A stretch of 64,000 nucleotides of DNA from Candidatus Omnitrophota bacterium (GCA_021108075.1 JAIORP010000012.1:6539-70538); one strand, 5' to 3'. Positions 5,001 through 33,900 are shown, numbered from the stretch's first letter. Numbers and translations: made by a program. The notes: generated from the sequence alone by a model not told the origin.

Positions 5001-5492
5001 TTTATTACAGTTTCGCGGGTCGAGAAACCTCATCCAGTAAAACAAGGATTGAAACATGATTTTATTTTTGCACTAATCCGGACAGGATCAAGTCGAGAAA
5101 CCTCATCCAGTAAAACAAGGATTGAAACATCCTATGCGTCAGTTCTCCGGGTGCGGTGTGATTGTCGAGAAACCTCATCCAGTAAAACAAGGATTGAAAC
5201 ATCAACCTGCGCATACCGGTTAACGCCCAATTAAATAGTCGAGAAACCTCATCCAGTAAAACAAGGATTGAAACAGTTCTTGCTTGGAAGAGTCCCCGGA
5301 TGCCGCTTGCGTCGAGAAACCTCATCCAGTAAAACAAGGATTGAAACGCGCAGCTCGAAGCGCAGATGGCGGAGTCGCAAGAAGTCGAGAAACCTCATCC
5401 AGTAAAACAAGGATTGAAACGATACAAGGACTTCATGACGGTACCAGCGAAGTTAGTCGAGAAATCTCATCCAGTAAAACAAGGATTGATTG
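2041..5492 (+). CRISPR. CRISPR array: 48 repeats of 37 nt (GTCGAGAAACCTCATCCAGTAAAACAAGGATTGAAAC), 47 spacers of ~34-37 nt, terminal repeat degenerate
   Basis: Exact 37-nt direct repeats with ~72-nt period, counted by hand. The last unit (5456..5492) carries substitutions (GAAATCTCAT...GATTGATTGAAG). The repeat 3' end ATTGAAAC matches the Cas6-type 8-nt crRNA handle. Confidence 0.97.
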
Positions 5493-5630
5493 AAGCTTAT
5501 CAAGGCCGCATATGGGCTGAAAGTGTTTCGCTTAAGGACTCTATCTGTTACATCTCCTTAACTATTAATTCAACTGCTGAAATTGTTTAAATGATTTTAT
5601 AGGAAAGCGTTATAGTGAATTTTTTGGTTT

Positions 5631-5648
5631 TTGTGATTTTTTTCACAA
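5631..5648 (+). promoter_or_regulatory. Candidate Rex operator TTGTGATTTTTTTCACAA
   Basis: 18-bp inverted repeat matching the Rex consensus TTGTGAA-N4-TTCACAA with one mismatch, immediately upstream of the rex -35 box. A second partial site, TTGTGAAATTTGGAACAA, lies at 5689..5706. Confidence 0.6.
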
Positions 5649-5654
5649 AACACC

Positions 5655-5682
5655 TTGATTTGTAGCGGGAATATGCTATAAT
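5655..5682 (+). promoter_or_regulatory. sigma70-like promoter of rex (-35 TTGATT, extended -10 TGCTATAAT)
   Basis: TTGATT at 5655..5660, 16-nt spacer, TGcTATAAT at 5674..5682, ~30 nt upstream of the rex start. Confidence 0.55.
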
Positions 5683-5713
5683 TTTGTAAAAATTGTGAAA
5701 TTTGGAACAAAAG

Positions 5714-6340
5714 ATGAAAACAACTAAAAATTGTATCACACGCCTTTATCAATATCGGGAGGCGTTGTATCGCATGAAGACATCAGGATGTCAAAAGGTA
5801 TTTTCTAATGATTTAGCTGAAGCAATCGGCGCGAATTCATCCCAGGTCCGTAAAGATTTTTCGCTCTTTGGTATCTCAGGAAATAAACGCGGTGGTTATG
5901 GTATTCATGAATTGATGGATCAGCTGGATACGCTGTTTAATAAGAATCAGATGCGAAAAATTATTGTTGTTGGCGTGGGGAATATCGGACGGGCCTTAAT
6001 GAATTATGAGAGCTTTGCCAGGGAGTTGATCCTTATTGAAGCCGCCTTTGATATCGATCCGATGAAGTATGACCGTGAAGCCCTGATTCCGGTCCTTCCG
6101 ATGGAAGAACTGCAGGATTACATTACCCATAACAAAATCAAGATGGCAATCATTGCTGTGCCGTATTTTGCCGCCCAGCAGGTGTTTGACCTGATGTCAG
6201 CTGCCGGTATCAGGGGCGTTGTTAATTTTTCACCTGTCAGCTTGAAAACTCCCGAGGATGTTTTTGTTAATAATGTGAATGTGCAGCTGGAAATAGATAT
6301 TGTTCATTACTTTGTTAATGCGTTAGATAAAAAAGAGTAA
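5714..6340 (+). CDS. rex: Redox-sensing transcriptional repressor Rex
   Basis: Winged-helix N-terminus (SNDLAEAIGANSSQVRKDFSLFG) followed by a Rossmann NADH-binding domain (IIVVGVGNIGRAL); Rex-family length (~208 aa); start taken at ATG 5714 (the ORF track uses TTG 5702). Confidence 0.85.
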   Translation: MKTTKNCITRLYQYREALYRMKTSGCQKVFSNDLAEAIGANSSQVRKDFSLFGISGNKRGGYGIHELMDQLDTLFNKNQMRKIIVVGVGNIGRALMNYESFARELILIEAAFDIDPMKYDREALIPVLPMEELQDYITHNKIKMAIIAVPYFAAQQVFDLMSAAGIRGVVNFSPVSLKTPEDVFVNNVNVQLEIDIVHYFVNALDKKE

Positions 6341-6564
6341 GAAAATATATTTTTTGAAGAATTGTTTGCGTTTTGATATATTTTTACCGGAGGAGTGGGT
6401 AACTTTTGGAAATCGTTCTAAAATTCAACACGTCATTCAGTTCTTTCAGCGCAATCAATGTGATCCTTAGATAATACATTTCGGTATTTTTAATGGAGTG
6501 AATTCCTCTGAGCTCTGCTGCGAGGAGATTCATTATATTACTCAAAAAACAGGAATAGGCCCAT

Positions 6565-8397
6565 ATGAAATTAAAAAGCAAAATGCTTTTTTCTGTAATC
6601 AGTATCATTGTTTTTTTGGGACTGTTTATTTCGTTTTTTGGCTTTCTCTTTGTTAAGAAGCACATTGTCGATCAAGCCCAACGTCAAATATCCATGGATT
6701 TGAAAGTCGCCCGATCTGTCTATGAAAAGCCTTTTGAACTGATGCGCGTCGGTTTTGATATGTACCGTACGGACCAATCCCTGGGCATGATCAAGGACAA
6801 TGTCGATCTGGATTATCTCGTTCTGCTTGATCAAAGTGGACTGGGCCAATTGACCGGCAATATTGCCCGTAAGGCCTACCGGACAAAACAGGCCTGTTTC
6901 GGAACACGCGTCATGGGGCATCAGGAACTGGAAGCTTTAGGCTCCCTGGACGCGTCGCCTTACGTGATCGCTCTTAAAGCGACCCCTGAATCGAGGCCCA
7001 CAGATCAGACGATTGTTAAAGATGTTATGGTGCTTGAGTATGCTAAGCCGCTGTTAGACGCTAACGGTGTCGTCCGGCAGTTATTGTACGGCGGCCGGAT
7101 TTTGACGCGCGATTATCCTTTTGTGGATGATATTGTCAAGGTGGTCTTTGAAAATAAAATTTACAACAATAAACCCGTTGGAACGGTCACGATTTTTCAG
7201 GACGATGTTCGTATTGCCACCAATGTGATCGACGATCAAGGCCAAAGGGCGATTGGAACACGGGTGTCTGATATCGTCTATGAAAAAGTTGTCGATCAAG
7301 GCGAAGTCTGGAATGACCGGGCTTTTGTTGTGACCGACTGGTATTTGACCGCCTATGAGCCAATAAGAAATATTGATGGAAATATCCTTGGTATTTTATA
7401 TGTCGGAATACTCGAGCAGCCTTACCACGACACGCAACGGAGTATCTTTTTAGCTTTTATCTCCCTTATTGCTGTCGCTTCTCTGATAGCCGCCGGGTTA
7501 GCGGTTTGGATCAGTGACCGGATATCAAACCCGATCAGTAGCCTCATGCAAACAATACGTAAGATCGGAGCGGGTGATTTGAAAAGCAAGGTTGAGAAGA
7601 GAACGGAGATTGATGAATTCAATGAATTGATTATCGCGCTCAATGATATGTCCGACCGGTTAAGTGAAAGGGAAAAGAATGTCGCGGATTCAAAGAACGC
7701 GATGGCTGAGATGAATAAGCGTTATTTGGATTTGATCGGGTTTGTTTCGCACGAACTGAAAGGATTGTTGTCGTCGATCGTTTTGAACACCTATTTATTG
7801 CAGCAGGGTATCTTAGGTCCTGTTAACGCCAAGCAGAAAAAGATACTGCAGTCGATCGCTCGAAATTTAGATTATTTGACGGTCACGGTCAGGAATTTTT
7901 TGAATTTGAGCCGGGTTGAAAAAGCGGAATTGGTTTTGAGCCGGACGGACCTGTTATTAAAGGAACATGTTTTTGATGTCTCAACCGAAGCGTTTATGCA
8001 TCAGGCCCTGGATAAAGAATTGAAGGTGACAAACAATATTGATCCCAGTATAGAAATCAACGGGGATGCGGGGTTGCTGCAAATTGTGGTCAATAATTTA
8101 TTGAGCAATGCTGTTAAGTACGCCCGCTCTGGCGGATGTATTCAAATCACCTCAAGGGTGATTGAGGGCGAAGTGGAGGTCACGGTTTACAACGATGGAA
8201 CACCGATCGCTTCCGTCGATTTAGATAAATTATTCAAGAAGTTTTCACGTATCGTTTACCGGGGACAAGAAAAAGTCAAAGGAACGGGAATAGGACTATT
8301 TATTACAAAGGAGATTATTGAACGTCATGGTGGTCGGATTTGGGTCGAACCACAGGCGGAAGGTAATGCTTTCAAATTTAGAATAAAGATGAAGTAA
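6565..8397 (+). CDS. Sensor histidine kinase with ~260-aa periplasmic sensor domain, HAMP, HisKA and HATPase
   Basis: Two TM segments (aa ~10-30 and ~290-313); HAMP-like linker; H-box FVSHELKGLL; G-box GTGIGLFITKEIIERHGGRIW. Confidence 0.85.
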   Translation: MKLKSKMLFSVISIIVFLGLFISFFGFLFVKKHIVDQAQRQISMDLKVARSVYEKPFELMRVGFDMYRTDQSLGMIKDNVDLDYLVLLDQSGLGQLTGNIARKAYRTKQACFGTRVMGHQELEALGSLDASPYVIALKATPESRPTDQTIVKDVMVLEYAKPLLDANGVVRQLLYGGRILTRDYPFVDDIVKVVFENKIYNNKPVGTVTIFQDDVRIATNVIDDQGQRAIGTRVSDIVYEKVVDQGEVWNDRAFVVTDWYLTAYEPIRNIDGNILGILYVGILEQPYHDTQRSIFLAFISLIAVASLIAAGLAVWISDRISNPISSLMQTIRKIGAGDLKSKVEKRTEIDEFNELIIALNDMSDRLSEREKNVADSKNAMAEMNKRYLDLIGFVSHELKGLLSSIVLNTYLLQQGILGPVNAKQKKILQSIARNLDYLTVTVRNFLNLSRVEKAELVLSRTDLLLKEHVFDVSTEAFMHQALDKELKVTNNIDPSIEINGDAGLLQIVVNNLLSNAVKYARSGGCIQITSRVIEGEVEVTVYNDGTPIASVDLDKLFKKFSRIVYRGQEKVKGTGIGLFITKEIIERHGGRIWVEPQAEGNAFKFRIKMK

Positions 8398-8629
8398 TAT
8401 CAATAACAAAATATAATTTGGAGTGATGATAAAACGGAATTGGAATAACGATGTGAGACTGACAGGATCAACCGAACAAGCCTGTTCGGTCCACCCCGGT
8501 GTGAGGACGAATTAATTTTTTCACTAATGGTGTGTGGAAGAGATTGTCTCCTGTGCTTCCTGGGGTGTTCAGTATCTCCTGGGATAATAACATAAGCTGT
8601 CGGTTAAAAAACAGCAAAGAGGAAAGAAG

Positions 8630-9481
8630 ATGAAAAATAAAATTTTACTTATTGATGATGATGCTGATTTTGTGGAAGCGACTCAATTATTGTTAGAAGC
8701 CAACGGTTATGATGTCTGTTGCGCGTCGAATGGAAAGGAAGGTTTCCAAAAGGTTAAGGAGGAATCTCCTGACCTGATCTTTCTTGATATGATGATGACG
8801 TATAAGACCGAGGGGGCGGAAACGGCGAAAGCGATGGCTGCTGATGCCGCCATCAAGATGATTCCCATTATTTTGATCACAGGAGCGGGCAAAGAAAAAG
8901 ATTTTCCGATGGATTTAAAAACATCGGACATACCTGTTAAGAGGATCCTCGAGAAACCGATCAACCCGGAAACACTTATTCAAGTAGCGAAGAGCTATAT
9001 CGGTTTGACAGGTAAAGAACGCCGTGAGTTTGTTGGGACATTAGACGCGATTGTTGGGAAATGGAAGGATAAAGAAGGCAATTTGATCATGATTTTGCAC
9101 GCGATTCAAAAGCATTACGGTTATGTGCCCCGAAATGTCTCCTTTGAATTGTGCCGGCTCTTGCATGTTCCGCTCGCGCGAATTTACGAAGTTATCACGT
9201 TCTACAACTATTTTAAATTAGAACCGCCGGGAAAAAATTTGATATCCATGTGTATGGGTACCGCTTGTTATTTAAAAGGAACACCGCAAATTCTTGACGA
9301 AATTAAAAATATCCTGGGGATTGAAGCCGGAGAGACAACGAAAGATGGATTTTTTCAATTGCAAAATGTCCGTTGTTTGGGCTGTTGCGGCCTGGCTCCC
9401 GTTATGATGATCAACGATAAGGTGTATGGTAAGGTCCAACGCGGTGAGGTCATGGATATTTTATCTGAATATACAAAATGA
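8630..9481 (+). CDS. hndA: Receiver (REC) domain fused to NuoE/HndA-like thioredoxin-fold [2Fe-2S] hydrogenase subunit
   Basis: N-terminal CheY-like domain with DDD acidic pocket, phospho-acceptor Asp in DLIFLDMMM, T in ILITGAG and K in EKPI. C-terminal NuoE motifs (CMGTACYLKG...CLGCCGLAPVMMIND). Confidence 0.8.
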   Translation: MKNKILLIDDDADFVEATQLLLEANGYDVCCASNGKEGFQKVKEESPDLIFLDMMMTYKTEGAETAKAMAADAAIKMIPIILITGAGKEKDFPMDLKTSDIPVKRILEKPINPETLIQVAKSYIGLTGKERREFVGTLDAIVGKWKDKEGNLIMILHAIQKHYGYVPRNVSFELCRLLHVPLARIYEVITFYNYFKLEPPGKNLISMCMGTACYLKGTPQILDEIKNILGIEAGETTKDGFFQLQNVRCLGCCGLAPVMMINDKVYGKVQRGEVMDILSEYTK

Positions 9482-9535: not shown

Positions 9536-9883
9536 ATGAGTTCAAGTAAAGTCAATATAGATGAGATCAAAAAGAACATCAATAAGAAATCAGGTGATTG
9601 GATAAAGGTTGGGATGAGCACGTGCGGTATTGCCGCCGGGGCTGATAAAGTTTTAGAGAAATTTCAGGAAGAAAAAGAACGCCGAAATTTGGATATCCGT
9701 TTAGAAAAATGTGGCTGTGCCGGTATGTGTTACGCCGAGCCTTTAGTTGAAATTCGCGTTAAAGGAATGCCGCAGGTTGTATATGGAAAGGTTGACGCAA
9801 AAGTAGTTGTCGAAATCATTGATCGTCATGTTCTCCGGAAGCAATTACTGGATGATCATATATATAACATTAAGGTTCAATAA
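9536..9883 (+). CDS. hndB: Small HndB-like thioredoxin-fold [2Fe-2S] ferredoxin subunit
   Basis: 115 aa with Cys motifs STCGIAAGA...CGCAGMCYAEP; sits between the NuoE-like and NuoF-like genes as in hndABCD operons. Confidence 0.6.
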   Translation: MSSSKVNIDEIKKNINKKSGDWIKVGMSTCGIAAGADKVLEKFQEEKERRNLDIRLEKCGCAGMCYAEPLVEIRVKGMPQVVYGKVDAKVVVEIIDRHVLRKQLLDDHIYNIKVQ

Positions 9884-9976: not shown

Positions 9977-11719
9977 ATGGGAGCAAATCAAATGAAAATA
10001 ATTCTGATTAAAGATACAGGACCAACTGAGAAGACGAAGATCATTTATGATCTTTTCAACGCCTTGTTGCGCGATGCCGGTATGCATGCAGATTACCAGG
10101 TTGTGCGCGCGGCGGATATCGGTATTTACGGGAAAGGCGTGGTTGTCAAGATTTTTCCAGGCGATATTGTTTATCAAAACGTCCAGGAAGATGATGTTAA
10201 CAATATTATTGATACAACATTAAAGCAAAATAAACCGATTAAAGATTTGCGGCTTGATTTTCAAAACAAACAAATTCGTATCGTCTTAAGGAATTGTGGT
10301 GTCATTGATCCGGAGAAGATTGATGATTACATCGGGCAAGACGGTTATCAGGGCATAAAGAAGGTTCTTCAGAAGTTTGATCCTGAAAAAGTCATTGACG
10401 AAATGAAAACGAGTGGACTCCGCGGCCGGGGAGGCGGTGGTTTTCCCACCTGGATGAAATGGAATTTCGCCCGGGGCGTCGAAATGGACCAAAAGTACAT
10501 TATCTGTAATGCCGACGAAGGTGATCCAGGCGCTTACATGGACCGTAGCGTTTTAGAAGGCGATCCCCATTCCGTATTGGAAGGGATGATGATCGCTGGA
10601 TACACGGTCGGCGCGTCGAAAGGTTACCTGTATATCCGCGCTGAATATCCTCTGGCGATAGAACGGTGTCAAAAAGCGATTGACCAGGCCCGCGTGTATG
10701 GTTTCCTGGGGGAAAATATTTTAGGGTGCGGCTTTAATTTTGATTTAGATATACGTTTAGGGGCCGGTGCTTTTGTTTGCGGCGAGGAGACGGCTTTGAT
10801 CGCGTCCATTGAAGGAAAACGCGGCTGTCCACAGCCCAGACCGCCGTACCCGTCGATAAAAGGATTGTGGGGAAAGCCGACGGTTATTAATAACGTTGAG
10901 ACATTAGCCAATGTGCCGGTTATCTTGCATAAAGGAGGGGCCTGGTTTTCTAAGATCGGAAGCGAGACATCAAAGGGCACAAAAGTTTTTGCCTTAACAG
11001 GGAAAGTTCAGAATTCCAGTCTGATCGAAGTTCCGATGGGGATCACCTTACGCGAAATCGTTTTTGATATCGGCGGTGGAGTTTTGGATAATAAAAAGAT
11101 CAAGGCGATTCAGACGGGCGGACCTTCCGGCGGCGTGGTCCCGGAGGACCTGTTTGACACCCCTGTCGATTATGAGAACTTGCTTAAATTAGGATCGATT
11201 ATGGGATCCGGTGGAATGATTGTTATGGACGAAGATGATTGTATGATCGATATTTCAAAATTTTATTTAGGTTTTTGCGTCGAGGAATCCTGCGGGAAAT
11301 GCGCTCCTTGCCGGATAGGCGGAACACAGCTGTTGAACATCCTCACAGATATTTCCGAAGGCAAAGCCACGATGTCAGACCTGGACCGCTTAACGAAAAT
11401 TTCTTCCGCGATGCAGAAGGCTTCTTTGTGCGGATTGGGGCAATCAGCGGCGAACCCTGTTCTGTCAACATTGAAATTTTTTAAAAAAGAATACCACGGA
11501 CATATCGTTGAAAAGACATGTCAGGCGGGCAAGTGTTCAGGCCTGTTTAAATATGAGATTATCCAGAAAAAATGTAAGCGTTGCGGCTTGTGTCAACGGA
11601 ACTGTCCTGTTGGCGCCATCCCGGGAGATAAAGATAAAGGCTATTTAATCGAACAAGAGAAATGTATCCGTTGTGGCCGGTGCTTTGATGTTTGTAAATT
11701 TGAGGCTGTTGCCAGGTAG
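9977..11719 (+). CDS. hndC: NAD(P)H-binding NuoF-like subunit of [FeFe]-hydrogenase (HndC/HydB)
   Basis: GLRGRGGGGFPTWMKW FMN/NADH motifs, ICNADEGDPGAYMDR, ESCGKCAPCRIGG, and two C-terminal 4Fe-4S ferredoxin motifs (CKRCGLCQRNCP, CIRCGRCFDVC). Confidence 0.9.
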   Translation: MGANQMKIILIKDTGPTEKTKIIYDLFNALLRDAGMHADYQVVRAADIGIYGKGVVVKIFPGDIVYQNVQEDDVNNIIDTTLKQNKPIKDLRLDFQNKQIRIVLRNCGVIDPEKIDDYIGQDGYQGIKKVLQKFDPEKVIDEMKTSGLRGRGGGGFPTWMKWNFARGVEMDQKYIICNADEGDPGAYMDRSVLEGDPHSVLEGMMIAGYTVGASKGYLYIRAEYPLAIERCQKAIDQARVYGFLGENILGCGFNFDLDIRLGAGAFVCGEETALIASIEGKRGCPQPRPPYPSIKGLWGKPTVINNVETLANVPVILHKGGAWFSKIGSETSKGTKVFALTGKVQNSSLIEVPMGITLREIVFDIGGGVLDNKKIKAIQTGGPSGGVVPEDLFDTPVDYENLLKLGSIMGSGGMIVMDEDDCMIDISKFYLGFCVEESCGKCAPCRIGGTQLLNILTDISEGKATMSDLDRLTKISSAMQKASLCGLGQSAANPVLSTLKFFKKEYHGHIVEKTCQAGKCSGLFKYEIIQKKCKRCGLCQRNCPVGAIPGDKDKGYLIEQEKCIRCGRCFDVCKFEAVAR

Positions 11720-11832: not shown

Positions 11833-13578
11833 ATGATAAAAGCGCGTATTAACGGTATTACCGTTGAAGTCGAGAAAGGGACGACCATCCTTGACGCGGC
11901 CAGGACGGTTCAGATAGAGATACCGACATTATGTAAACACCAGGATTTACCGGCTTCCGCCGCCTGCGGTATTTGTATTGTTAAAGTGCGGGGCTCACGG
12001 AAAATGTTACGGGCCTGCTGTACGCCGATAGAAGACGGTCAGGAGGTTATTACCCATGATCCTGAAATCATTGAAACACGCCGCACGGTGGTTGAACTGA
12101 TTTTATCCAATCATCCCAATGATTGTTTGAAATGCGGTCGCAACAATAACTGCGAATTGCAGACGCTGGCGTCGGACTTTGCCATACGCGAAGATGTTTT
12201 TAAAAATATTGTCCGCGAAATACCAAAAGACAGTACGACCGGCACCATTGTTTTAGAACCGTCAAAATGCATCAAGTGTGGCCGTTGTGTTGAGGTGTGT
12301 CAGGGGATGCAGGACGTTTGGGCGTTGTCGTTTATTGACCGGGGGGTTGAGACGCGTATTTCTCCAGCCGGGGATATCCAATTGGGTGAATCACCCTGTG
12401 TTCGCTGTGGTCAATGTTCGGCCCATTGTCCGACGGGCGCGATTTTTGAGAAAGATGATACAATCAAAGTTTGGCGGGCATTGCAAGACGCGGATAAATA
12501 TTGTGTTGTTCAGATCGCGCCGTCCGTCCGTGTCGCTGTCGGCGAAGGATTTGGCTATGAACCGGGTACAAACTTGACCGGGAAGATTTATTCGATGTTG
12601 CGCCGGCTGGGTTTTAAAGCGGTCTTTGACACGAACTTCAGCGCTGACGTGACCATTATGGAAGAAGCCAGTGAGTTTGTCGAACGGTTTGTTCATAATA
12701 AAGGGCCCTTGCCACTCATCACGACGTGCTGCCCGGCCTGGGTTGATTTCATGGAAAAGTATGAAGCCGATATGATTGAACATTTTTCTTCCGCCAAATC
12801 ACCCCAACAGATGTTAAGCGTTTTAGCCAAGACCTATTATGCGGAAAAGATCGGAGTTGATCCTTCGAAGATTTACATGGTTTCGATCATGCCGTGCACC
12901 GCCAAGAAATATGAAATTACACGGAGTGAAGAGATGTTTATCGATGGCCGTCAAAACACGGATGTTGTTTTGACCACGCGTGAGTTTATCCGTATGATCA
13001 AACAGGCCGGAATCAATTTTAATGGGCTCAAAGATGAAGCTCCGGACCATATCCTCGGAGACTATTCCGGCGCGGGTGTTATTTTCGGCGCCACAGGTGG
13101 GGTCATGGAGGCCGCCTTAAGAACGGCGTATTATCTTGTGACCAATAAAAACCTCGACAAGTTTGAATTTGAAAATGTGCGGGGATTAAAGGGCGTGAAA
13201 GAAACGTCCATAACGATTGAAGGCACGGAAGTCAAGATCGCGATCGCGCATGGTTTAGGAAACGTCGAGTATGTGATCAATAAAGTCAAGGAAGCCAGGG
13301 CCAATAATCAACCTTTGCCTTATCACTTTATCGAGGTCATGGCCTGTCCAGGCGGGTGTGTCGGCGGCGGTGGGCAGCCTTACGGCGTCTCCGATGATGT
13401 GCGCATGAAAAGGGCTAAAGGTTTATACTCCGATGACGAAGGCAATGCCGTCCGCTGCAGTCATGATAATCCGTATGTTAAGAAATTGTATGAGGAATAT
13501 CTGGAAAAGCCCCTTAGTGAAAAAGCGCATCACCTGTTACATACAAAGTATATTCCTAAACCGGAATACCGGAAGTAA
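11833..13578 (+). CDS. hydA: [FeFe]-hydrogenase catalytic subunit (HndD/HydA)
   Basis: H-cluster signatures TTCCPAW (L1), MPCTAKKYE (L2), EVMACPGGCVGGGGQP (L3); N-terminal 2Fe-2S and accessory 4Fe-4S cysteine motifs. Confidence 0.93.
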   Translation: MIKARINGITVEVEKGTTILDAARTVQIEIPTLCKHQDLPASAACGICIVKVRGSRKMLRACCTPIEDGQEVITHDPEIIETRRTVVELILSNHPNDCLKCGRNNNCELQTLASDFAIREDVFKNIVREIPKDSTTGTIVLEPSKCIKCGRCVEVCQGMQDVWALSFIDRGVETRISPAGDIQLGESPCVRCGQCSAHCPTGAIFEKDDTIKVWRALQDADKYCVVQIAPSVRVAVGEGFGYEPGTNLTGKIYSMLRRLGFKAVFDTNFSADVTIMEEASEFVERFVHNKGPLPLITTCCPAWVDFMEKYEADMIEHFSSAKSPQQMLSVLAKTYYAEKIGVDPSKIYMVSIMPCTAKKYEITRSEEMFIDGRQNTDVVLTTREFIRMIKQAGINFNGLKDEAPDHILGDYSGAGVIFGATGGVMEAALRTAYYLVTNKNLDKFEFENVRGLKGVKETSITIEGTEVKIAIAHGLGNVEYVINKVKEARANNQPLPYHFIEVMACPGGCVGGGGQPYGVSDDVRMKRAKGLYSDDEGNAVRCSHDNPYVKKLYEEYLEKPLSEKAHHLLHTKYIPKPEYRK

Positions 13579-13803
13579 TATAAGAGGGAAAAAGGTGGAG
13601 AATAGCGGTATAATTTAAGCCATAAGTTGTTGTTTTATTCTGGATAATAATAAAGTATCCGGGAGCTCTTCAAATATTGAGAAGTTGGGTTAAATCCGGT
13701 AATATGTTAGTATTTCGAAAAATAGGCCAGACGTTTTTTGTTTTATTCGTATCACCATATTTTTATTTTACCTTTTACCGTTAACCTTTTTACTTTAGAA
13801 ATT

Positions 13804-14148
13804 ATGCACGAAATGTCGATCGTAACAGTTTTGATTGATCAAGTTATTGATATCGCTCAGCGGAACCGGCTGAAAGATGTTCAGGTCGTTGTGCTCGTGG
13901 CCGGACAGTTGCGTCAGGTCGTACCGGAAATGATGCAGGAAGCTTTTAAAGCGGTTATTCCTGGCACGATTGTTGAAGGCGCTGTTTTGCGGGTTGAAGC
14001 GGAAGCGGCCCTTGTCCGTTGTCGTGCTTGCCAGGCGGAGTACCAGCCGGACGTGGATGATTTTATTTGTCGGTCGTGCCAAAAGGCGGATGTCGAGATT
14101 TTGCGAGGGAATGATATTATATTAAAAACGATAGAAGGGAACAAATAG
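13804..14148 (+). CDS. hypA: Hydrogenase nickel-incorporation protein HypA
   Basis: Starts MHEMSI; zinc-ribbon CRAC...CRSC; ~114 aa. The real start is internal to the track ORF 13738..14148. Confidence 0.8.
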   Translation: MHEMSIVTVLIDQVIDIAQRNRLKDVQVVVLVAGQLRQVVPEMMQEAFKAVIPGTIVEGAVLRVEAEAALVRCRACQAEYQPDVDDFICRSCQKADVEILRGNDIILKTIEGNK

Positions 14149-14161
14149 CCGCCGGGTGATT

Positions 14162-14266
14162 ATACCAATGCCATTAAATAATGACAAAAAACCGATTCTG
14201 TTTTTCTCGACGCTAAGGCAAGAATATCAGAATTGAAATAGAATAATTAATGAATGGATTTGGTAT
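14162..14266 (+). repeat. MITE-like element, copy b (reference copy, intact TIRs)
   Basis: ATACCAATGCCATTAAATAATGAC...CTCGACGCTAAGGCAAGAATATCAGAATTGAAATAGAATAATTAATGAATGGATTTGGTAT, between hypA and hypB. Confidence 0.75.
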
Positions 14267-14293
14267 GAGTTTAAATATCGGGGAGGGGTTTTG

Positions 14294-14971
14294 ATGAAAG
14301 TGAATGTGGTAAAAAATGTTTTAAGGGCCAATGATATTGTCGCGCAGGAAAACAGATCGGTTTTTAAAGATAAAGGTGTTTTGGCCTTGAATTTGATCAG
14401 CTCCCCGGGCAGCGGGAAGACGACGTTATTAGAAAAGACATTGCCCGTGTTGAGTCCTGATAAATCGATTGTTTTAGTCGGTGATCTGGAAACCACCCGT
14501 GATGCCGAACGCGTCGCTCCACACGCCCTGAATGCCACCCAGATCAACACCGGCCTGAGCTGCCATCTTTACGCGAATCAGATCGCTCAAAGTTTGTCAG
14601 CTTTACCCCTTGATGACGCCCAATATTTGTTCATTGAGAACGTTGGCAATATGGTCTGCCCGGGAGAGTTTGATCTTGGTGAAAATTTGAAGATTATTTT
14701 GTTGAGCGTTCCGGAAGGGGATGATAAGGTCGCCAAATATCCCACGATTTTTCGTGTCGCGGACCTTATTTTGCTCACCAAATGCGAGTTGCTCGATATT
14801 TTGCCTTTTGATGTCCAACGTGTCAAAGAGGATTTAGCGAAACTCAATTCCAACACAACATTATTGCCGTTTTCATCCTTTAAAGGGGATGGCATGGATG
14901 TCTGGATCGACTGGCTGAAACAAAAGCGTCAAGAAAGCATCGGCGCCCAAGCGAAATTTGTGACGGAATAA
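14294..14971 (+). CDS. hypB: Hydrogenase maturation GTPase HypB
   Basis: P-loop GSGKTTLLEKT and HypB-family G-domain layout; GGGAGGGG Shine-Dalgarno 6 nt upstream of ATG 14294. Confidence 0.85.
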   Translation: MKVNVVKNVLRANDIVAQENRSVFKDKGVLALNLISSPGSGKTTLLEKTLPVLSPDKSIVLVGDLETTRDAERVAPHALNATQINTGLSCHLYANQIAQSLSALPLDDAQYLFIENVGNMVCPGEFDLGENLKIILLSVPEGDDKVAKYPTIFRVADLILLTKCELLDILPFDVQRVKEDLAKLNSNTTLLPFSSFKGDGMDVWIDWLKQKRQESIGAQAKFVTE

Positions 14972-15241: not shown

Positions 15242-17200
15242 ATGTTTTCATTCAAAGATTTAAGTGTAAGGGCGAAAGTTTTATCAGCTGTGGGAAGTGT
15301 GTTGTTGATTTTGTTTTTTCTTGGCGCGCTGGCAATTACGAATTTTAACGCGATAAAGACAGAGATTGACGGACTTTTGCTCGCATCAGATATTCAGACA
15401 AACGCGTTTAGAATGAGGATGGAAGAGAAAAATTATCTTTTGCATCATAAGGATGAAAATTATAAAAAGGCAAAAGAAGATTTAAAGCATATTCATAAAG
15501 ATCTGGATACGATCAATGAAACATCAAAAGATAAAGGTCTTCTTGACCATGCGCGTAAAATGGGAGAAGAGGTTGAAAAATATGAAACTCTCTTTAGCCA
15601 GTTAGTGGAAGACAAAAGAAAAGAACTTCATGATGAAGAACTTATGAATAAAGAAGGAAGAAAGGTGGCAGATCTCTTTAGAGCATATTTTTCAGGGCAG
15701 GCGGCTGACATGAAAAAAGCGGTGGCAAGCGGTAATATCGAAGAGATTAAAATAAAAGAGTCACGTTATGCTAACGCGGTAAAAGGATTCAACTTAATCT
15801 CAAGTATTCGTCTCAGACAGAGAGAATATATAGTAGACCATGAGAAAGAGATATATGAAAGAATGAAAAAAGAATTAAAAGAACTTTTGGCCCTGTATGA
15901 TGAGATGCATGGGTATACAAGGCAGGAGAAAAATAAGAAGGCAATCCTTGGGGCTAAAAAGGTTACACTCGCGTATGTAAAGGAAATGGAAGAATGGGTG
16001 AAACTGGACCATGAGATCAGAGTAGAAATTTTGCCTGAGATGAGGGCATTAGGAAATGATGTTATTCATGTTGCTCAGGAATCTAACGATCACGCGGTGC
16101 ATTTAATGGTTTCAAAACAGAAGGAAGCCAAAAGCATTATTACCATAGGGTTGATTGTCGCGATATTAATAGGTGTGTTCCTTGGGTTTATGATAGGAAA
16201 TATGGTTTCGGGAGCTATTAAAAAAGTGGTTGATATGCTTAAAGATATTGCCGAAGGTGAAGGGGATTTAACCAAAAGGATACCGGTTGATTCAAAAGAT
16301 GAAACCGGCCAGCTTGCCCAGTGGTTTAATACCTTTATCGGTCAGGTTGAAGGCATTATTGGTCAGGTTGCAGACTCGGCGAATCAGCTTTCTGCCGCGA
16401 CAGAGGAGATATCATTGTCGGCACAGCAGATTTCAGACGGCGCGCAACAGCAATCATCAAGTTTTGAAGAATTATCCAGTTCTGTTCAATCTACCGCGGA
16501 AAATTCTATATTGGCAAATAAGATATCAAAAGAAGCTGAACAAAAAGCACATATAGCAGAGGAAGCTATGGGAAGCACCGTTGAGGCAATGACATCTATT
16601 GAAAAAGGCGCGGGACAGATTGCTGAGGCTGTCAGCTTGATCACTGATATCGCTGATCAAACCAACCTTTTGGCTCTTAATGCTGCGATTGAAGCGGCAC
16701 GCGCGGGTGAGCATGGAAAAGGGTTTGCTGTTGTCGCGGATGAAGTAAGGCGACTCGCGGAACGATCGGCTATCTCCGCGAAAGACATAGAAACTTTAAT
16801 AAAAGGTAGTTTAAAAGAAGTTGAAGATGGGGTGAAAGTTTCCCAAAAATCAGGTTCTGATGTCAAAGAAGTTGTTGGGAATATTAATACGATAGCGGGG
16901 CGACTGCAAGAAATTTCAAGTTCCACTCAAGAGCAGGCATCTGCAATGGAAGAAAACACTTCTATTGTTGAATCCAATGCTGCTGCTTCAGAAGAACTTG
17001 CAGCATCCGCGGAAGAGATGGCAGGGCAGGCAGAGGCGCTGCAGAATCTTGTTGCGCAGTTTAAGATAAGTGAAAGGGTGAATGCCTCGGGAATGGAAGC
17101 AACTGGCGTGAAGAAAGAGACGCCTAAGGTCCAAGCAGAAATTCCAAGAAAGGATAAAGATAGAGATAGAGATGAAGATGAAGAGTTAAGAATAGGCTGA
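15242..17200 (+). CDS. Methyl-accepting chemotaxis protein
   Basis: N-terminal TM/sensor region, HAMP, and conserved MCP signalling hairpin ([33 protein letters not shown]); AAGGAG RBS upstream. Confidence 0.9.
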
Positions 17201-17375: not shown

Positions 17376-17710
17376 GTTTTCCTCCAAAGAGAATGTCGGG
17401 ATTGTTTATCGCGACCCCATCAAGTATAGCTCCGCAACTCCAATGCCTGTGAAAGTGGGATGAGAGTTAAATCCAGAAACGAAGATTAGCGCCAATAGCG
17501 CTTGTAATAGTAAGTCCCCCGGGTGTGAACCCGTGGGAAGCTATTTTTCAGGCTCATTTTGCAGTAGAAAAGACTCTATTTTGATATATAATAATATATG
17601 TTGTATACTTATTTAGTTAAGTATTAATTTTCTTTATATTATGGCATTCATTGCAAGATGAGTTGCCATCCCTAATTCTACCATCGAATTTTTAACCGTT
17701 GATTATTTTT

Positions 17711-20700
17711 ATGCCGTCAAAATCTATGTCTTACAAATTGTTTTGCCTCTTTTTGATCCTCGCGCTCGGTGTTCATATGATCATGCCTGCCACGGGTTTT
17801 GCGCAAGGGATGATATCTTTGCCCATACCAGGTGAAATGGTGAGGGTCAGCCCGGTCTTTGATCCCATGATGATCCGGGGCGTGATGGTCAGTCCGGATA
17901 ACCCCTTTGAACTGAAATTTTTAATGGATAGCGGTGACGCGATCCTGGCTGATGAAGCCCTTAAGAAGGAGGGGCAGGGATTAATCAAGTATTTTTTGGC
18001 TACATTAACGACTCCGGATGAGGATCTGTGGGTTAATCTTTCTCCTTATGAAAACGACCGTATCATGGCCAATGAATTCGGTCAGACCGAAATGGGCCGG
18101 GATATGTTGGCCCAGGATTACTTGTTGAAGCAATTGACCGCCTCTTTAATGTATCCGGAAGAAGAACTGGGTAGACGGTTTTGGGAACGTGTTTACGAAG
18201 AAGCGTACAAACGCTTCCGCACGACGAATATTTTAGTCAACACGTTTAATAAGGTATGGATCATTCCTGAGTACGCGGATGTGTATGAAAAAGACGGTGT
18301 GGCGTATATTCTTGACTGCCGGCTAAAGGTTATGTTGGAGGAAGATTATATCGCCTCCCAGCAAGTGTTGGGTAATGCTGCTTGGGCCCGTAAGCTTGGC
18401 GTGGCTGACTTGACGGAAGAAGATAAAGCGAATTTGTTCGCCTCACAGAGCGATCCTTTAAAAGCCATCCTTAAGGAAATCATTGTTCCTGAAATTGAAC
18501 GGGAAGTCAATGAAGGACGAAATTTTGGACAGCTTCGTCAGATATTCTACTCGATGATTTTAGCGACATGGTACAAAGAGCGCCTGAAAAATTCCATCCT
18601 CAATCATGTCTACTCGAATCAAAAAAAAATAAACGGCATTGATGTCGAGGACAAAGACATTAAAGAAAAGATCTACCAACAGTATATCACCGCCTTTAAA
18701 CGTGGTGTTTACAATTACATTAAAGAGCAGTATGATCCGCAAAAAGGCGAGGTCATCCCACGCAAATATTTTTCCGGCGGGGCGACGTGGATCAATATCA
18801 AGGATGTGACCCGTTACCACAAAGAACTTCCATCAAATTTCGATAAGGTTCCCCGGTCCGATTTTGCCATGCTGACCAGGTTAGATGATTCCGCCCAAGC
18901 GGCGCCGCGCGCGATGGACGCGGCGATGCTCGACACCTCAGGCCGTCAAAGAGCCCGCCAGGATGCTTTTGAAAAGCTTGTCCGTGACCGTTTTGAGTTT
19001 GATAACGTGATCGCTTCTTTTAATGATTTGCTCAAGGGAGCTAATCTTAAAGTTTATCCATCCCGCGCGGATCTCTATCAGTATGAAGGCGGTCTGGATA
19101 CCGGAAGTTACTTCTTTACAAAATTAGTCGGGTATGGCCTCGACGCTCAGAGGAAATACATCGCGTTAAGGCGCTTGATTGAGCAGGATCAGTTTTTAGA
19201 TTTTATAAGTGGAGAGGCAACCTTTTCTCGTGGTGACCTATTGCGGATATTGAAAAATAAAGAATTGGACGATGAACTGGACCTGATATTAAAAGATCAA
19301 GACAGTTATGATGATTTTATTTCGATGTTAGCAGACCGGGACTATATGGATATTCTTTTCAGTCACACAGGGACCGCTGAGATTTATATTGAAAATAACA
19401 AGTTGGTTGCTCAATTACCCAATACTCAGCTCGTCGATGTACTGGGATTTATTTCTTTTTCCCCTGAGGATCGAAATATTGAGTTCCTCCTGTCCGAGAA
19501 TTCCATGGCCCAGTTCCTTTTTGATATCCGCCGACAAGTGCTGCCATTGTTAGTTGAGGCCGCGCAGGAATATGGATGGGGATTCCGCTCTCCGCTTGAA
19601 GTTGAGCTTTCGGATGCTGTCAGGCCAATCGCAAATGTGATTTCAAGAGTCCGGGAGCAGGAATTAGAACGGTTTTTAGGCCAGGATACGTTTAGCCGCC
19701 GGGTCGAAGACTTAGAACATGGGGCTTTTCAAAATTTAAAGGATTTGTTCCAGGAAAGGAAGCAGCAGGGGCAGCCGGTAATGATTGGCATCAGCGGTTT
19801 ACCCGGAGGCGGGAAAACGCAGAAAGATAAACGTGTCGCGGCAGCGATAGCAGAAGTTGTTAAGGAAGATATTGTGATCATCGACGAAGACCGGTTTATA
19901 AAACAGCGGGCGCCCGTGGACACCCGGGGGGAAGGATTGGGAGGGAAATTTGACTGGTCTGCGCATGATCAGAGCCTTAAGGACTTGCGGGAAGGCCGCT
20001 CCGTAATGGCACAGATGTATGATCCTGTGACGGGGGGGAATCCGATGTTGGCCCTCACGGAGGCCGGAAACATCATTATTTTGAATGGAAACAGGACGAT
20101 AACCATTGTCGCTGATAAAGACCAGAATCTTTTTGACTTGATCGAAGAAGAGCATCAACCCGGTCAACCAGCGCAAGTGATCAGGCATCATTTTAAGACG
20201 GAGAACTTGACGCAGAGCGGTCCGTTTACATCAGGTTCAACGGTCTATCAATTTAAAATAGAGAACGGAAAGTTAATGGTCGGATTTCAGGGGTATGATG
20301 TCTTACGATTGGAAGAACAGAACGCGCCCCGCAACATCTTGGCCATGACACAATATGAAATTGATTTAACACGTGAAGACCTCGTCGCGCGGATCCAACT
20401 GTCGGGAGAACATAAACATCTCGAAGCGCAAAGTGTTTTTCCCCTGAACGTCGTGTCTGACCGGATGGATGTGAACGCTGTGAGTCGTGCTATTCTCTTA
20501 AAGGAAGTCATCCCGACGGACAAACCGATTGTGTTTTCAGGAACGCATGCCTATACCCAGTATAAAGATAATAAGTTCGTGTCGAATGATCAGATCTTTG
20601 ATGTGAGTCTGTATTATCAGACGCCATGGATTGTGCGCTGGACGCGTGATTGGTTAAGGAGCCAAGAACGAGGCAAGCAAAGAGGGGAACAGCTCGGGAA

Positions 20701-23700
20701 TGCGGCACGTTTTTATGACCGTTTGAATGTGGAGGAAACGATTTCCTTACAGACAAAACCTCAGGTCGTTCGCGATATTAAAATTATGGGTGTCACGGAA
20801 GCTATCGCGTATTTGTTGCACGCGTCGCCTGAAAAATTATTTGTGCATGAAGCGTATCTTCGGCAATTAGGTCTGGACCTGAATACAATTCGTGAGTGGC
20901 AACGGGAATATCTTGTTAAGCCGGAGCTGCTGAGTCTTTTTAATGAATTTAGAGAGAAAACGGAATTTGTACGGACATATGACGGCCATGATGAGTATTC
21001 GATCGGAGATTTCATTTTCAACGTGAAGAGCGGACAGAGCGCGTTATCTCAGGCTGAGATTCTTCATCATGACCGGCTTCAGGACCGGTTAAGGGGGATT
21101 TGGGGCGGCAGCACGATTATTCATTTGGATCAGCTGGGTGATGTTGTTGTCGACGGGGATAAAAAAAGGTTCGGTTATGTTTCCGTCTGGAATAAAGGCG
21201 AGCTGGTCGGAGAACGTTTGAAGGCGCTGGCTCAAAGAACGGATCCAGACAGTTTGACTGAAGCGCAAATTCTGATCGATCAATTTGTAGAGCAAGAGCA
21301 GCAACTGCACCTGAGAGGGGTTGTCGATAAAAATCCTGATATTATGACGAATCGCCGGATTTTGCCGATGGATAATCAGATGAAAGTGATGGTCGCGAGT
21401 CCGGCCGCCCAGTTGACGATTTGGGAGAATGCGTTATCTGTGTACCAGTCCCGATATGCCTCACGCCGGGCGGATGAGAATATATATTTATCTCCTCAGA
21501 TTTTACAAAGCATTCCAGAGGCGTTCAGGCCCTATTATGAACAAAAAGTAACGGAACAATTGTTGCCTTCTGCCGGACAGACAAAAGAAGACGCTTTTCA
21601 GCAATTTTACAATAATGTCTTTGAACTCGCCTTACATGTCGCGGATCGATCTCCCTTCGGAGACCTGATAAAATTTGGTTTAGTCCGTAATGAACAGGCG
21701 CATTTGATTGTTGAGAATTTGAAGAATACAGACGTGGAACATCCGGCCCTATTTGAACGCCGACTGAATCATATCCGGTTTATTTTTACACGGGCCCTCA
21801 TCGATCAGACCCGTCGTGATTATTTTGATTACGTCAATACGTCAAAAGGAAATCCGCTGCTTGCCTGGACCATGCTTTTTGTTGATTCATACCCGGAAGT
21901 TTATAATAAATTTAATTTGCTCATTAAAATTTTTCTGAACGAATTGATGGAAAATGCGGGATTGTTACAGTCCTTCCCCTCGAATGAAGAACTCTGGCAG
22001 TACATTTCAGCACGGTATCAAGAGACTTATTCTGTTAGAGGGTTAGCGACTCCCGGGTTAAGTGCATATGTGCGGCGTTCTTTTGAATATTTTATCGATA
22101 TCGCCCGTCAAATGCCGTTAAGCTGGGACTTGATACAAGAACGGCCAGCGGTCACCGGTGATTTGGCCTCAGATCCATACGAGTTTTCCCTAACATCTTA
22201 TGCCAATGAAACGCAAGGGTATCCCGATATGATGGGGGTACAAGTTTTAGATGAGCGTGAGTTTGGTCGTCTCAGGACCTATATGGATCAACCGCGTAAA
22301 GCGGTCTTGACAGACCTCGACGGCACAGCAACACTCGTTGATCAGAAATCAGGTCGAGTTAGTGAAAGCGTAAAAGAATCGCATAAGGCCAATATTCAAC
22401 GCTTTGCTGAGCTGGTCACTGATGGCGTCTTAGTTGTTCCGACCACAAACCGCCGGGAGTCAAAAGCGGTTGCTTACGCTGAAGAAATTGATCAGGTCAT
22501 CCAGCAGACTCCCGGGTATCGGTATCGTCAAGATTCTAGGACGGGCGGATCGTTTTTATTGTTTTGGGCCTCTGGGATGAATGGCATGGATGTTGGTCAG
22601 AATAAATTATTAGATGATTTTCAGTTAAAATTTAATCCGCAACAACAGGAAGAGGTCGTTCAATCCTTGCTGAAGGATCAGGTTATCGCGTCACGCGCCA
22701 CAAGACATGTTGAGATCCTTGATGGAAAAATTAATGTTTATTATTCAGGTGGTACGCGCGTAAGCCGGGCAGGTTTTTTAGATGCTATCCGGGGTGTTTT
22801 AGATGGTTTGAATACCCTGGTCCGTCAAGACGGTTTTGCCCCAAAGGGCGAATATTCTTTGCTGCGGGTTGTCGACGGGGGAGAAAATGTCATCTCGATA
22901 CTGCCGCAGGACGCTAATAAGGCCCGGCCAAAGAATTATATTCAAAATCGTTATGCTATATCTGAAGATGAAACATTGATCCTTGTTGACCAACCGCAAC
23001 AAGGACGGGCGGACAATGACCTTGTCCGTTTGTCAGGTATTCATGTTGGGGATGATATCGATGATTTACCAGAAGGAGTTATCAGCACCAAGAAAGCAAT
23101 CGGCCTGGTTGGTCCGCAGGCGGTTCAATGGCTGCTAACAAACACAGAATTTTCTTCTCCTTTTATTGAAGAAGAAACCTTCCGCTCGATACTGGCAAAG
23201 AATATCCCACCGACACGGAATGTCGTCATTGAAAAGGTCGGAAACTTGCGTTTGGTGAGAACTCCCTGGCGCAAAAGACGTGTTAATCCGACAACCCCTT
23301 TTAGCGCGGTTGTTCTTCCCTTTGATCCTGGCCTTTTTAATTTTCGGAACGAAAACATTGATGAAAGCGATATCTTTTTCGAAGGCATTATCGAAGGGCA
23401 GGAAACAACGTTATTGTTGCAAAAGTCTCCCTTTGCCCCCGATCATTTTCTTGTAATTCCTGAGCGTGATCTTGAGCGTCCGCAGGTATTGCAGCCAAAG
23501 GACATCGCTTTTGGTGCCCGGTTTGTCCGTTCGCAAGCTTTGCCGCATTTGCGTTTGGGGTTTACAAGTTTAAAAGGCGGCGCATCTATTAATCAGCTGC
23601 ATATGCAGGCCTTCACGACGATCGAAGACCTTTCCGCGTTAGAATTGGTTCCTAAAAAAGAGGAGTACCGTATTCAAGGCGTCAGTGTGAATGTATTGGA

Positions 23701-30557: not shown

Positions 30558-30624
30558 ATGATCCTACGGGTGTGTGCACCCAAAGAATTAAATCCGTTTA
30601 ATTTCAATATCAAAGGTGAAGTCT

Positions 30625-33354: not shown

Positions 33355-33900
33355 ATGGAAAAACCAAAAATTGCTACTGCTTCGCTCGCGGGTTGTTTTG
33401 GCTGTCATATGTCTTTATTGGATATTGATGACCGCATCCTGAAACTTTTTGAGCTCGTTCAATTTGATAAATCCCCTATTGATGATATTAAGAAGTTTAC
33501 GGGCCAGTGCGCTATAGGCCTGATTGAGGGGGGATGTTGCAATGAAGAAAATGTTCATAACCTGCAGAATTTTCGTAAGCATTGTGGCATCCTGATCTCT
33601 GTCGGTGACTGCGCGATCAATGGCGGGATTCCAGCGATGCGCAATAACATTCCTTTAAAAGAATGCTTTGACGAGGCCTACAGGGATGGACCTTCGGTTT
33701 ATAATCCTGAAGGTATTATTCCGAATGACAAAGAAATCCCTCTTCTGTTAGATAAGGTTTATCCTTGCCATCATGTGGTTAAAGTTGATTATTATTTGCC
33801 AGGTTGTCCACCGCCTGCTGATACACTGTGGGAAGCGCTTGTGGCCTTGTTAAGCAATAAGCCGCTTGATTTACCTTATGAGTTAATAAAGTATGATTAA
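33355..33900 (+). CDS. hoxY: [NiFe]-hydrogenase small subunit HoxY
   Basis: CFGCHMS proximal-cluster cysteines, GGCCNEE, LPGCPP; ~181 aa as in bidirectional hydrogenase small subunits. Confidence 0.8.
   Translation: MEKPKIATASLAGCFGCHMSLLDIDDRILKLFELVQFDKSPIDDIKKFTGQCAIGLIEGGCCNEENVHNLQNFRKHCGILISVGDCAINGGIPAMRNNIPLKECFDEAYRDGPSVYNPEGIIPNDKEIPLLLDKVYPCHHVVKVDYYLPGCPPPADTLWEALVALLSNKPLDLPYELIKYD

Follow-up and report, generated by a model that had tools for sequence, protein, structure and literature searches.

A receiver domain fused to the HydC-type subunit of an [FeFe]-hydrogenase in Candidatus Omnitrophota, and the sensor kinase encoded next to it

The subunit set of the HydABC hydrogenases (T. 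maritima, A. woodii, T. kivui), of the tetrameric Hnd enzyme of Solidesulfovibrio (Desulfovibrio) fructosovorans and of the Bfu family (HydC/HndA, an HndB-like protein, HydB/HndC and HydA/HndD) is also encoded in a stretch of 64,000 nucleotides (nt) from a Candidatus Omnitrophota bacterium (GCA_021108075.1 JAIORP010000012.1:6539-70538), hereafter called the window. We consider here positions 6565-9481 of the window, where the gene of a membrane sensor histidine kinase is followed by a gene in which a receiver domain of the response-regulator type (REC) is fused to the HydC (NuoE/HndA-type) subunit. No HydC/HndA subunit that has been solved or characterised carries a receiver, whereas the HydC of the window has one. 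The enzyme also differs from HydABC/Bfu in that the N-terminal cluster cysteines of HydB are lost and are carried by a separate small subunit.

To our knowledge, HydABC/Bfu hydrogenases have been described as regulated only transcriptionally, through Rex or sensory hydrogenases. Rex repression is known for hyd operons, and the window likewise contains a rex gene with an operator. In the H2-sensing HoxBC-HoxJ-HoxA and HupUV-HupT-HupR systems, the putative sensory [FeFe]-hydrogenases (HydS/HfsB) with kinases or phosphatases, and the hisK-like ATPase genes of hydABC operons, the action is transcriptional (NtrC-type HoxA/HupR, Rex) or the targets are not assigned, and the sensors are cytoplasmic PAS or hydrogenase-like ones; in the window, by contrast, sensing falls to an extracytoplasmic sCache domain, and the enzyme itself includes the receiver. 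Receivers fused to, or docking on, effectors that do not bind DNA are found in CheB, PleD/WspR and RpfG, and among single-domain regulators in CheY, DivK and CpdR. The likeness to these would lie in a canonical receiver that, as proposed here, controls the activity of a protein directly, with no transcriptional output; lineages related to the window module likewise use a stand-alone single-domain receiver of the CheY type. However, the effectors of CheB/PleD/CheY-type systems are signalling enzymes or motor/protease adaptors, while in the window the receiver is partnered with a structural subunit, an iron-sulfur protein, of a redox enzyme central to energy metabolism.

The operons of the bifurcating hydrogenases of T. 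maritima and A. mobile contain hisK genes (PMC9304861), and, given this unexplained 'hisK' in Bfu operons, a link between a kinase and such enzymes is not wholly unexpected. All parts of the locus (CheY-like receiver, NuoE/HydC, Bfu-type hydrogenase, Rex, Cache kinase) are known, and it is their combination that appears undescribed: in the full-text literature searched we found no description of the REC-NuoE/HydC architecture, which is an absence of evidence within that literature.

The receiver-HydC fusion

Six co-directional genes on the + strand, from rex to the HydA gene, begin directly after a CRISPR array (open reading frame (ORF) listing). The kinase and the fusion are the second and third of them, with the following elements (lengths of proteins in amino acids, aa).

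6565-8397, + strand: membrane sensor histidine kinase, 610 aa (Pfam sCache_3_3, HAMP, HisKA, HATPase_c)
8398-8629, + strand: spacer between the kinase and the fusion, 232 nt (ORF listing)
8630-9481, + strand: REC-HydC (NuoE/HndA-type) fusion, 283 aa (single ORF, zero internal stops)
8642-8986, + strand: receiver domain, residues 5-119 (PF00072)
8966-9064, + strand: continuous helix, residues 113-145 (AlphaFold2 (AF2) model)
9044-9472, + strand: NuoE/HydC thioredoxin-like [2Fe-2S] module, residues 139-281 (PF01257)

A previous reading of this DNA from the sequence only had described a canonical receiver fused in frame to a NuoE/HndA-type subunit, and profile searches bear this out. Both halves of the single ORF score above the cut-offs, the receiver with PF00072 (66.4 bits vs 30.2, E = 3.1e-18, profile positions 1-109 of 111) and the NuoE half with PF01257 (164.8 bits vs 24.8, E = 1.5e-48). 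The phosphorylation pocket is complete, with every residue named in that reading in place: D9/D10 of the D9-D10-D11 run, the acceptor D53 within FLDMMM (nt 8786-8788), T84 and K109-P110. The ligands of the [2Fe-2S] cluster, the 'C1' cluster of HydABC, are C208, C213, C249 and C253. The best NCBIfam receiver model for residues 1-124, the DVU0259/DivK family (NF045717), reached 67.5 bits against a cut-off of 160, and the fusion is not a member of that family.

The AF2 model, built with 54 homologs (mean predicted local distance difference test (pLDDT) 82; predicted template modelling score (pTM) 0.62), shows the (beta-alpha)5 receiver fold, with strands at residues 4-8, 28-32, 49-53, 80-84 and 105-108 and helices between them. 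In this model alpha5 of the receiver and helix 1 of the N-terminal helical bundle of HydC form a single unbroken helix (113-145). Of the 120 homologs, 117 have the same spacing of 37 residues from K109 to W145, and the linker is at the same time the least sequence-conserved part of the fusion (0.49 vs 0.70 and 0.79, 120 homologs). The fixed length together with low sequence conservation fits a connector whose helical register matters. We also considered whether the length of the alpha4 segment tracks the integrity of the phosphorylation site, and this was not borne out.

Among solved structures, the NuoE half matches the HydC subunits of T. kivui (8a6t_C, E = 6e-40), A. woodii (7q4v_C) and T. 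maritima (7p5h_C), the HydC of the NiFe-Bfu enzyme, and 2auv_A, a 'potential NAD-reducing hydrogenase subunit' (E = 2e-22) that we take to be the C-terminal domain of HndA. The best solved matches of the receiver half are single-domain response regulators (e.g. 3dge_C, E ~1e-14). Foldseek comparison of the fusion with 8a6t_C, 7q4v_C and 7p5h_C gave E ~1e-15 and target TM-scores (template modelling) of 0.68-0.70. In the sequence and Foldseek searches the two halves occurred together in no solved structure, the HydC-type PDB matches covering only residues ~136-282.

A public survey recovered the fusion in at least 120 clusters and 15 species-level genomes. The homolog set used throughout consists of the best 120 clusters (90% identity) of 4937 matches in a search of 5.8 billion proteins; these at least 120 clusters are 55-100% identical to the window protein, and all carry both PF00072 and PF01257. 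They come mainly from Candidatus Omnitrophota and also from Auribacterota, and one cluster, from Omnitrophota metagenome-assembled genomes (MAGs), is 100% identical to the window fusion. With one genome taken per species (GTDB), the fusion is a single ORF in 15 loci belonging to Omnitrophota, Auribacterota and MAGs labelled Planctomycetia, and the architecture is seen in 27 independently assembled loci when metagenomic ones are added. The four [2Fe-2S] cysteines are invariant (120/120), and 101 of the 120 homologs have DDDTK as their receiver quintet, while in 16 (~13%; two N-terminally truncated sequences excluded) the site is degenerate yet the domain is kept. The proteins are annotated only as 'NAD(P)H-dependent oxidoreductase subunit E' or 'response regulator', names that hide the receiver-HydC feature. 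For the near-identical MCD4779109.1 a length of 190 aa is annotated, 93 less than in the window protein and not enough for both whole domains, and public annotation may hide the fusion in some assemblies.

Probable pairing of the kinase with the receiver

The periplasmic-sensing HAMP kinase directly upstream of the fusion and Rex before the kinase, both named in the sequence-only reading, were confirmed by Pfam and NCBIfam models. Reading the transmembrane (TM) segments from the sequence, we place TM1 at about residues 8-30, followed by the sCache domain (residues 180-292 by Pfam, nt 7102-7440) and then TM2; as the two hydrophobic segments bracket ~265 residues containing the Cache domain, the sensor is extracytoplasmic. 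The HAMP domain (nt 7507-7665), the HisKA acceptor H396 (nt 7750-7752) and HATPase_c (nt 8062-8391) follow. H396 and the N, G1, F and G2 boxes are invariant in an alignment of 20 kinase orthologs from several phyla. No ligand of the sensor could be inferred, the comparison of the periplasmic domain with the PDB giving weak matches to chemoreceptor ligand-binding domains only (8py1, 8py0; E ~1e-4). One kinase and two REC domains are detectable in the whole 64-kb window, and both REC domains lack an output domain.

We compared the state of the receiver site with the presence of the kinase in loci that were chosen by the fusion and have readable upstream DNA. In loci that retain the acceptor Asp, Thr and Lys, the kinase is directly upstream in all cases (13/13, of which 12 have the full quintet and one is D10N), whereas in all fused genes without an adjacent kinase the site is degenerate (7/7: DNDKK, DGNTK, DAETK, DNETK, DDDIK, VNDSK, DDHAK). 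As a two-by-two table this gives 12 canonical sites with the kinase and 0 without it, and 1 non-canonical site (D10N) with the kinase and 7 without it (Fisher one-sided p ~1e-4 for site integrity vs kinase, kinship among loci being ignored). On the HydB tree the kinase-less lineages are scattered among the kinase-bearing ones, and therefore at least four separate events of coincident kinase loss and site decay have to be assumed. When fused loci chosen by the kinase are counted as well, the acceptor Asp, Thr and Lys are intact in all 25 loci with the kinase (two D10N). Among closely related operons, those that have an unfused NuoE-type gene (62-72% identity) and no receiver showed no kinase in the 6-8 kb upstream of the loci scored. 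In one locus without a kinase (L016, 3348-4366) the NuoE-type gene is unfused, and 309 nt ahead of it there is a receiver remnant, alignable over residues 1-84 only, that resembles an intermediate stage of receiver loss.

The converse sample was chosen by the kinase. A metagenome scan with the single kinase sequence gave no confirmed relative; with the 20-sequence kinase alignment, 80 metagenomic contigs (40-54% identity) were found. Multimeric [FeFe]-hydrogenase genes (HndB/NuoF/HydA or NuoE) are directly downstream of the kinase in 75 of the 76 assessable loci, that is, those with at least 450 nt of downstream DNA; 12 of these loci are fused (DDDTK, n = 11; DNDTK, n = 1). The rex gene is directly upstream of the kinase in 69/80.

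In Phycisphaerae, Anaerohalosphaeraceae, Raymondbacteria and some Omnitrophota, the kinase heads operons with a separate receiver gene, located directly after the NuoE-type gene or after hydA. The stand-alone receiver ORFs in such operons are 116-178 aa long, with intact sites and without an output domain, in 66 cases out of 66. Fused and stand-alone receivers cluster together and have common motifs in alpha1 (e.g. DDDxDFVEA..LLEA.GY) and in beta5. The occurrence of the receiver in both split and fused form is evidence of the Rosetta-stone kind and, as a comparison of gene architectures, indicates that the physical partner of the receiver is the HydC module.

No DNA-binding response regulator was seen in the ~100 modules inspected. 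The kinase, the receiver and the hydrogenase are one conserved module without a DNA-binding output, and the absence of a DNA-binding two-component output, claimed earlier for this locus, holds both for the two receivers of the window and for the 66 stand-alone ones. A system of the HoxJ/HoxA or HupT/HupR type was rejected: neither the fusion nor the 66 stand-alone receivers have a DNA-binding or AAA+ domain, and the kinase is membrane-bound with an sCache sensor, not soluble.

In some Omnitrophota (L007, L010, L014, L093, L099, L112, L113, L131) tandem hydrogenase operons were observed upstream of the kinase. The first operon of the tandem consists of Rex, a receiver, NuoE-type (28-32% identical), NuoF and HydA (42-44% identical) genes, and its receiver is a separate gene, 112-123 nt before the NuoE-type gene; the second, immediately after it, comprises the kinase, [REC-NuoE], HndB, NuoF and HydA.

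Proposed control of the enzyme and alternative explanations

The module has no DNA-binding output, and therefore direct phospho-control of the enzyme complex is the best reading. With a receiver on the N-terminus of HydC and a kinase encoded next to it, we consider it probable that the complex is controlled in this way, on top of Rex; the phosphotransfer from the kinase to the receiver, the effect on the enzyme and its direction, and the nature of the signal are what we infer. The sequence-only reading had suggested control of this kind rather than transcriptional control. The pairing of kinase, receiver and hydrogenase has gained comparative support, the effect on the enzyme being a prediction, but the words 'rather than transcriptional' were too exclusive, given Rex and its perfect operator.

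The mechanism we propose would proceed as follows. The membrane kinase would sense an extracytoplasmic small molecule via the sCache domain, the ligand controlling its kinase or phosphatase activity; it would autophosphorylate at H396 and pass the phosphoryl group to D53 of the receiver. The alpha4-beta5-alpha5 face would then rearrange, and the change would pass into HydC via the continuous helix of fixed length, in which alpha5 is helix 1 of the HydC four-helix bundle. Either the seating of HydC on HydB/HydA would be altered, or the association of HydABC protomers would change via receiver dimerisation, and the activity or the NADH/ferredoxin coupling would be tuned or switched within seconds.

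Katsyv et al. located the N-terminal four-helix bundle of HydC at the HydB/HydA interface (PMC10021017), and the C-terminal C1 domain of HydC has been proposed to swing in and out, gating the electron flow to the ferredoxin branch (PMC10021017; PMC9304861). Because of these two features a regulator on HydC is well placed, and a phospho-switch there could bias the in/out equilibrium of the C1 domain. The receiver in HydC would also provide handles on the proposed gating of the ferredoxin branch, namely D53 variants and activation with BeF3-. If true, control of this kind would mean that a sensory pathway is connected directly to a core redox enzyme, and it would bear on how cells quickly stop or redirect a reversible bifurcating enzyme.

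We are more hesitant about a broader form of this reading, which seems to us possible but somewhat doubtful: that a widespread two-component class (Rex / sCache kinase / output-less or HydC-fused receiver) directly gates bifurcating [FeFe]-hydrogenases. Phosphorylation of the receiver would then lock or release the in/out movement of HydC, or change the oligomerisation of HydABC, and in response to an extracellular cue the enzyme would pass from coupled operation (NADH + ferredoxin) to being off or uncoupled, or back. It would then be the first case in which flavin-based electron bifurcation is gated post-translationally by a signal. The [NiFe] Hox enzyme, which is NAD-linked, may be co-ordinated by this kinase as well, via a second receiver. 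Among the Omnitrophota, Auribacterota and Planctomycetota (Phycisphaerae) of anoxic sediments and sludges this module is common, and it may shape the exchange of H2 between these uncultured anaerobes and their partners.

Several observations weigh against direct phospho-control. On the side of the structure, the alpha4 region of the receiver (residues 88-97), which belongs to the putative output face, is predicted to be disordered (pLDDT <50), and the AF2 model has no confident contacts between the receiver and the NuoE half beyond the helix (pTM 0.62). On the side of the genes, the spacer between the kinase and the fusion is 232 nt here vs 7-111 nt in related loci, which points to loose coupling; in one locus (L161) the kinase precedes an unfused NuoE-type gene; many fused loci have a second, stand-alone receiver after hydA, and the fused one is maybe not the sole or main acceptor. 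The kinase-less lineages retain a degenerate receiver domain, which shows an additional, phosphorylation-independent (structural) role. Finally, part of the sample was picked by the state of the site or by the kinase, and the Fisher test treats related loci as independent.

The transcriptional layer is represented by Rex and its operator.

5631-5648, strand not given: Rex operator TTGTGA-N6-TCACAA, zero mismatches, upstream of rex, adjoining the -35 hexamer of the best promoter-like site (5655-5682)
5702-6340, + strand: rex, NADH/NAD+-sensing transcriptional repressor (PF06971 + PF02629; NF003996 Rex equivalog, 221.6 bits, cut-off 138)

This operator is the only zero-mismatch Rex box in the 64 kb. 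A second Rex-box-like site, with 2 mismatches, is at 5693-5710, and the scan of the window found no Rex box before the kinase or the fusion gene. The fusion gene has a GAGGA ribosome-binding site 9 nt before the ATG. No RNA family was found by Rfam in the 232-nt spacer, the sole matches in 5300-9000 being CRISPR-DR7 repeats, and the fold of the spacer is no better than that of shuffled sequences (z = -1.56, not significant); a hairpin at ~8470-8490 was considered as a terminator, and it is not a canonical one. Rex, through the operator at the rex promoter, would add a slower, NADH-dependent transcriptional control.

There are several alternatives to direct phospho-control. In the first, which we regard as unlikely, the signal flows in the opposite direction, or the receiver on HydC acts as a phosphate sink or a branch point: the effector of the kinase would be a stand-alone receiver, located after hydA in relatives or after the Hox operon in the window, and the HydC-borne receiver would compete for the phosphoryl group, perhaps depending on the redox or conformational state of HydC. 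The state of the hydrogenase would then tune a signalling output (motility, cyclic di-GMP, the other hydrogenase), and the hydrogenase would not be the target. A single-domain receiver does follow hydA in a number of fused loci (L001, L003, L005, L006, L008, L009, L012, L090-092, L096), the window itself has a receiver after the Hox operon and a methyl-accepting chemotaxis protein (MCP) gene near the hydrogenase operon, and, as the alpha1 motifs are common to the fused and the stand-alone receivers, both could be substrates of the kinase. However, the window and the fused loci L002, L004 and L097 have no second receiver in the operon, the stand-alone receivers are always beside hydrogenase genes, and the module has no conserved downstream signalling partner. 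A helical connector of fixed length, moreover, is expected for transmission into HydC, whereas a mere sink would not need it.

According to the second alternative, the receiver fold on HydC is a pseudo-receiver with a purely structural or assembly role, and the kinase is unrelated or acts via an unlinked DNA-binding regulator, so that control would be purely transcriptional (Rex, possibly others). For the kinase-less lineages the first part of this is true, as the ~13% of fused homologs (16/120) with degenerate sites keep the domain, and both the perfect Rex box and the 232-nt gap, which suggests separate transcription of the kinase and the fusion, would agree with it. As a general explanation we find it improbable, since degenerate sites occur only without the kinase (7/7), the Asp, Thr and Lys are intact with it (25/25, two D10N), members of the kinase family hardly ever occur outside such operons (75/76), the ~100 modules inspected contain no DNA-binding response regulator, and the window protein has the full DDDTK quintet.

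The third alternative bears on what is gated, not on whether it is gated, and is best considered together with the type of the hydrogenase. Three genes follow the fusion, the gaps among the four being 54-113 nt.

9536-9883, + strand: HndB-like small thioredoxin-like [2Fe-2S] protein, 115 aa (weak PF01257; PDB match to 9bov_B)
9977-11719, + strand: HydB/HndC (NuoF-like) FMN/NAD(H) subunit, 580 aa (Pfam, NCBIfam, match to A. woodii HydB)
11833-13578, + strand: HydA/HndD [FeFe]-hydrogenase catalytic subunit, 581 aa (PF02906, NF040763)

HydA has PF02906 (305 bits), PF02256 and the N-terminal Fer2_4, NADH-G_4Fe-4S_3 and Fer4 domains. HydB matches A. woodii HydB (7q4v_B) over nearly its full length (703.9 bits, E = 2e-210), its C-terminus aligning to the ends of the A. 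woodii and A. mobile proteins. Its C-terminus retains a 2x[4Fe-4S] ferredoxin domain (clusters B3/B4), with Fer4 motifs at residues 527-577, and HydB also has the ligands of the extra [2Fe-2S] cluster, where it aligns with C438, H525, C531 and C536 of A. mobile HydB. At A. mobile position 476 the window HydB has Ser; FeFe enzymes are reported to have Thr at this position (PMC9304861). The N-terminal thioredoxin-like domain of HydB (9977-10300) is devoid of cysteines, whereas cysteines are present at the corresponding positions of A. woodii HydB; the HndB-like protein matches the N-terminus of NfnB/BfuB 9bov_B (E = 1.6e-18), with all four cysteines aligned. It seems that the cluster domain was duplicated and its function handed over from HydB to the separate HndB-like subunit. 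By sequence the enzyme is a four-subunit HydABC/Hnd-type (Bfu-family) [FeFe]-hydrogenase, NAD(H)-linked and probably ferredoxin-linked, and the cluster motifs of HydB lend support to the label 'electron-bifurcating-type' that it had been given from sequence.

The third alternative is that regulation is as we favour but the enzyme is non-bifurcating and NADH-only, the receiver toggling NADH-dependent production of H2 with no bifurcation gate. The family to which HydA is assigned, NF040763 (799.5 bits vs a cut-off of 765), is named by NCBIfam 'NADH-dependent [FeFe] hydrogenase, group A6', and the lack of cysteines in the N-terminal domain of HydB would be consistent with such an enzyme. We nevertheless give this alternative little credence. 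The 2x[4Fe-4S] domain is retained in HydB, and so are the Cys and His residues that bind the extra [2Fe-2S] cluster; according to Schut et al., such ligands occur in bifurcating Bfu enzymes and not in their non-bifurcating homologs (PMC9304861). A separate subunit, the HndB-like protein, probably provides the N-terminal cluster that HydB lacks, and among solved structures the closest relatives are without exception characterised bifurcating enzymes.

The last alternative, a frameshift or a lost stop that joined two genes in assembly or gene calling, can be dismissed despite the one near-identical cluster member annotated as 190 aa: the receiver fold is supported by both the profile and the AF2 model, the ORF is uninterrupted, and the same architecture, with a conserved linker length, recurs in at least 120 clusters and 27 independent loci.

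The Hox operon and other features of the window

The second REC domain of the window is located at the end of the operon of a NAD-linked [NiFe] hydrogenase.

30616-32442: fused HoxE-HoxF, 608 aa
32468-33187: HoxU
33355-33900: HoxY
33924-35366: HoxH
35363-35842: 159-aa ORF of the Hox operon
35850-36299, + strand: stand-alone output-less receiver (PF00072, E = 6e-20) at the end of the Hox operon

The genes of HypF, HypD and HypE follow this receiver. It is 41% identical to the fused receiver, its closest relative among the receivers collected. We considered whether it could be an ortholog of the receivers that follow hydA in related loci, and rejected this: it is an outlier in the receiver tree, with the fused receiver of the window as its best match. 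Each of the two NuoE-containing hydrogenases of the window is associated with a receiver, and only one kinase is present; that this kinase serves the Hox-linked receiver as well is a speculation.

Downstream of the HydA gene are hypA, hypB and then the MCP gene (15242-17200). The hypA and hypB genes (13738-14971), which belong to nickel insertion into [NiFe]-hydrogenases, directly follow the [FeFe] hydA, at a distance of 16 kb from the structural genes of the [NiFe] Hox enzyme. We saw no genes for the maturases HydE/F/G in the window; related loci carry HydF/HydG after hydA.

Upstream of the rex gene, Cas1 (45-968) and Cas4 (1262-1867) are followed by the long CRISPR array, which extends to ~5489 and ends ~140 nt before the Rex box. 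The repeats of the array match Rfam CRISPR-DR7, and the repeated-peptide ORFs there are spurious products of the array. Between the MCP gene and the Hox operon there is a giant ORF of 4204 aa with a TTG start (17699-30313, + strand). The GC content falls sharply to 0.35 at 46001-48000 (~0.45 around), just before a 1278-aa GGDEF-domain protein at 47473-51309.

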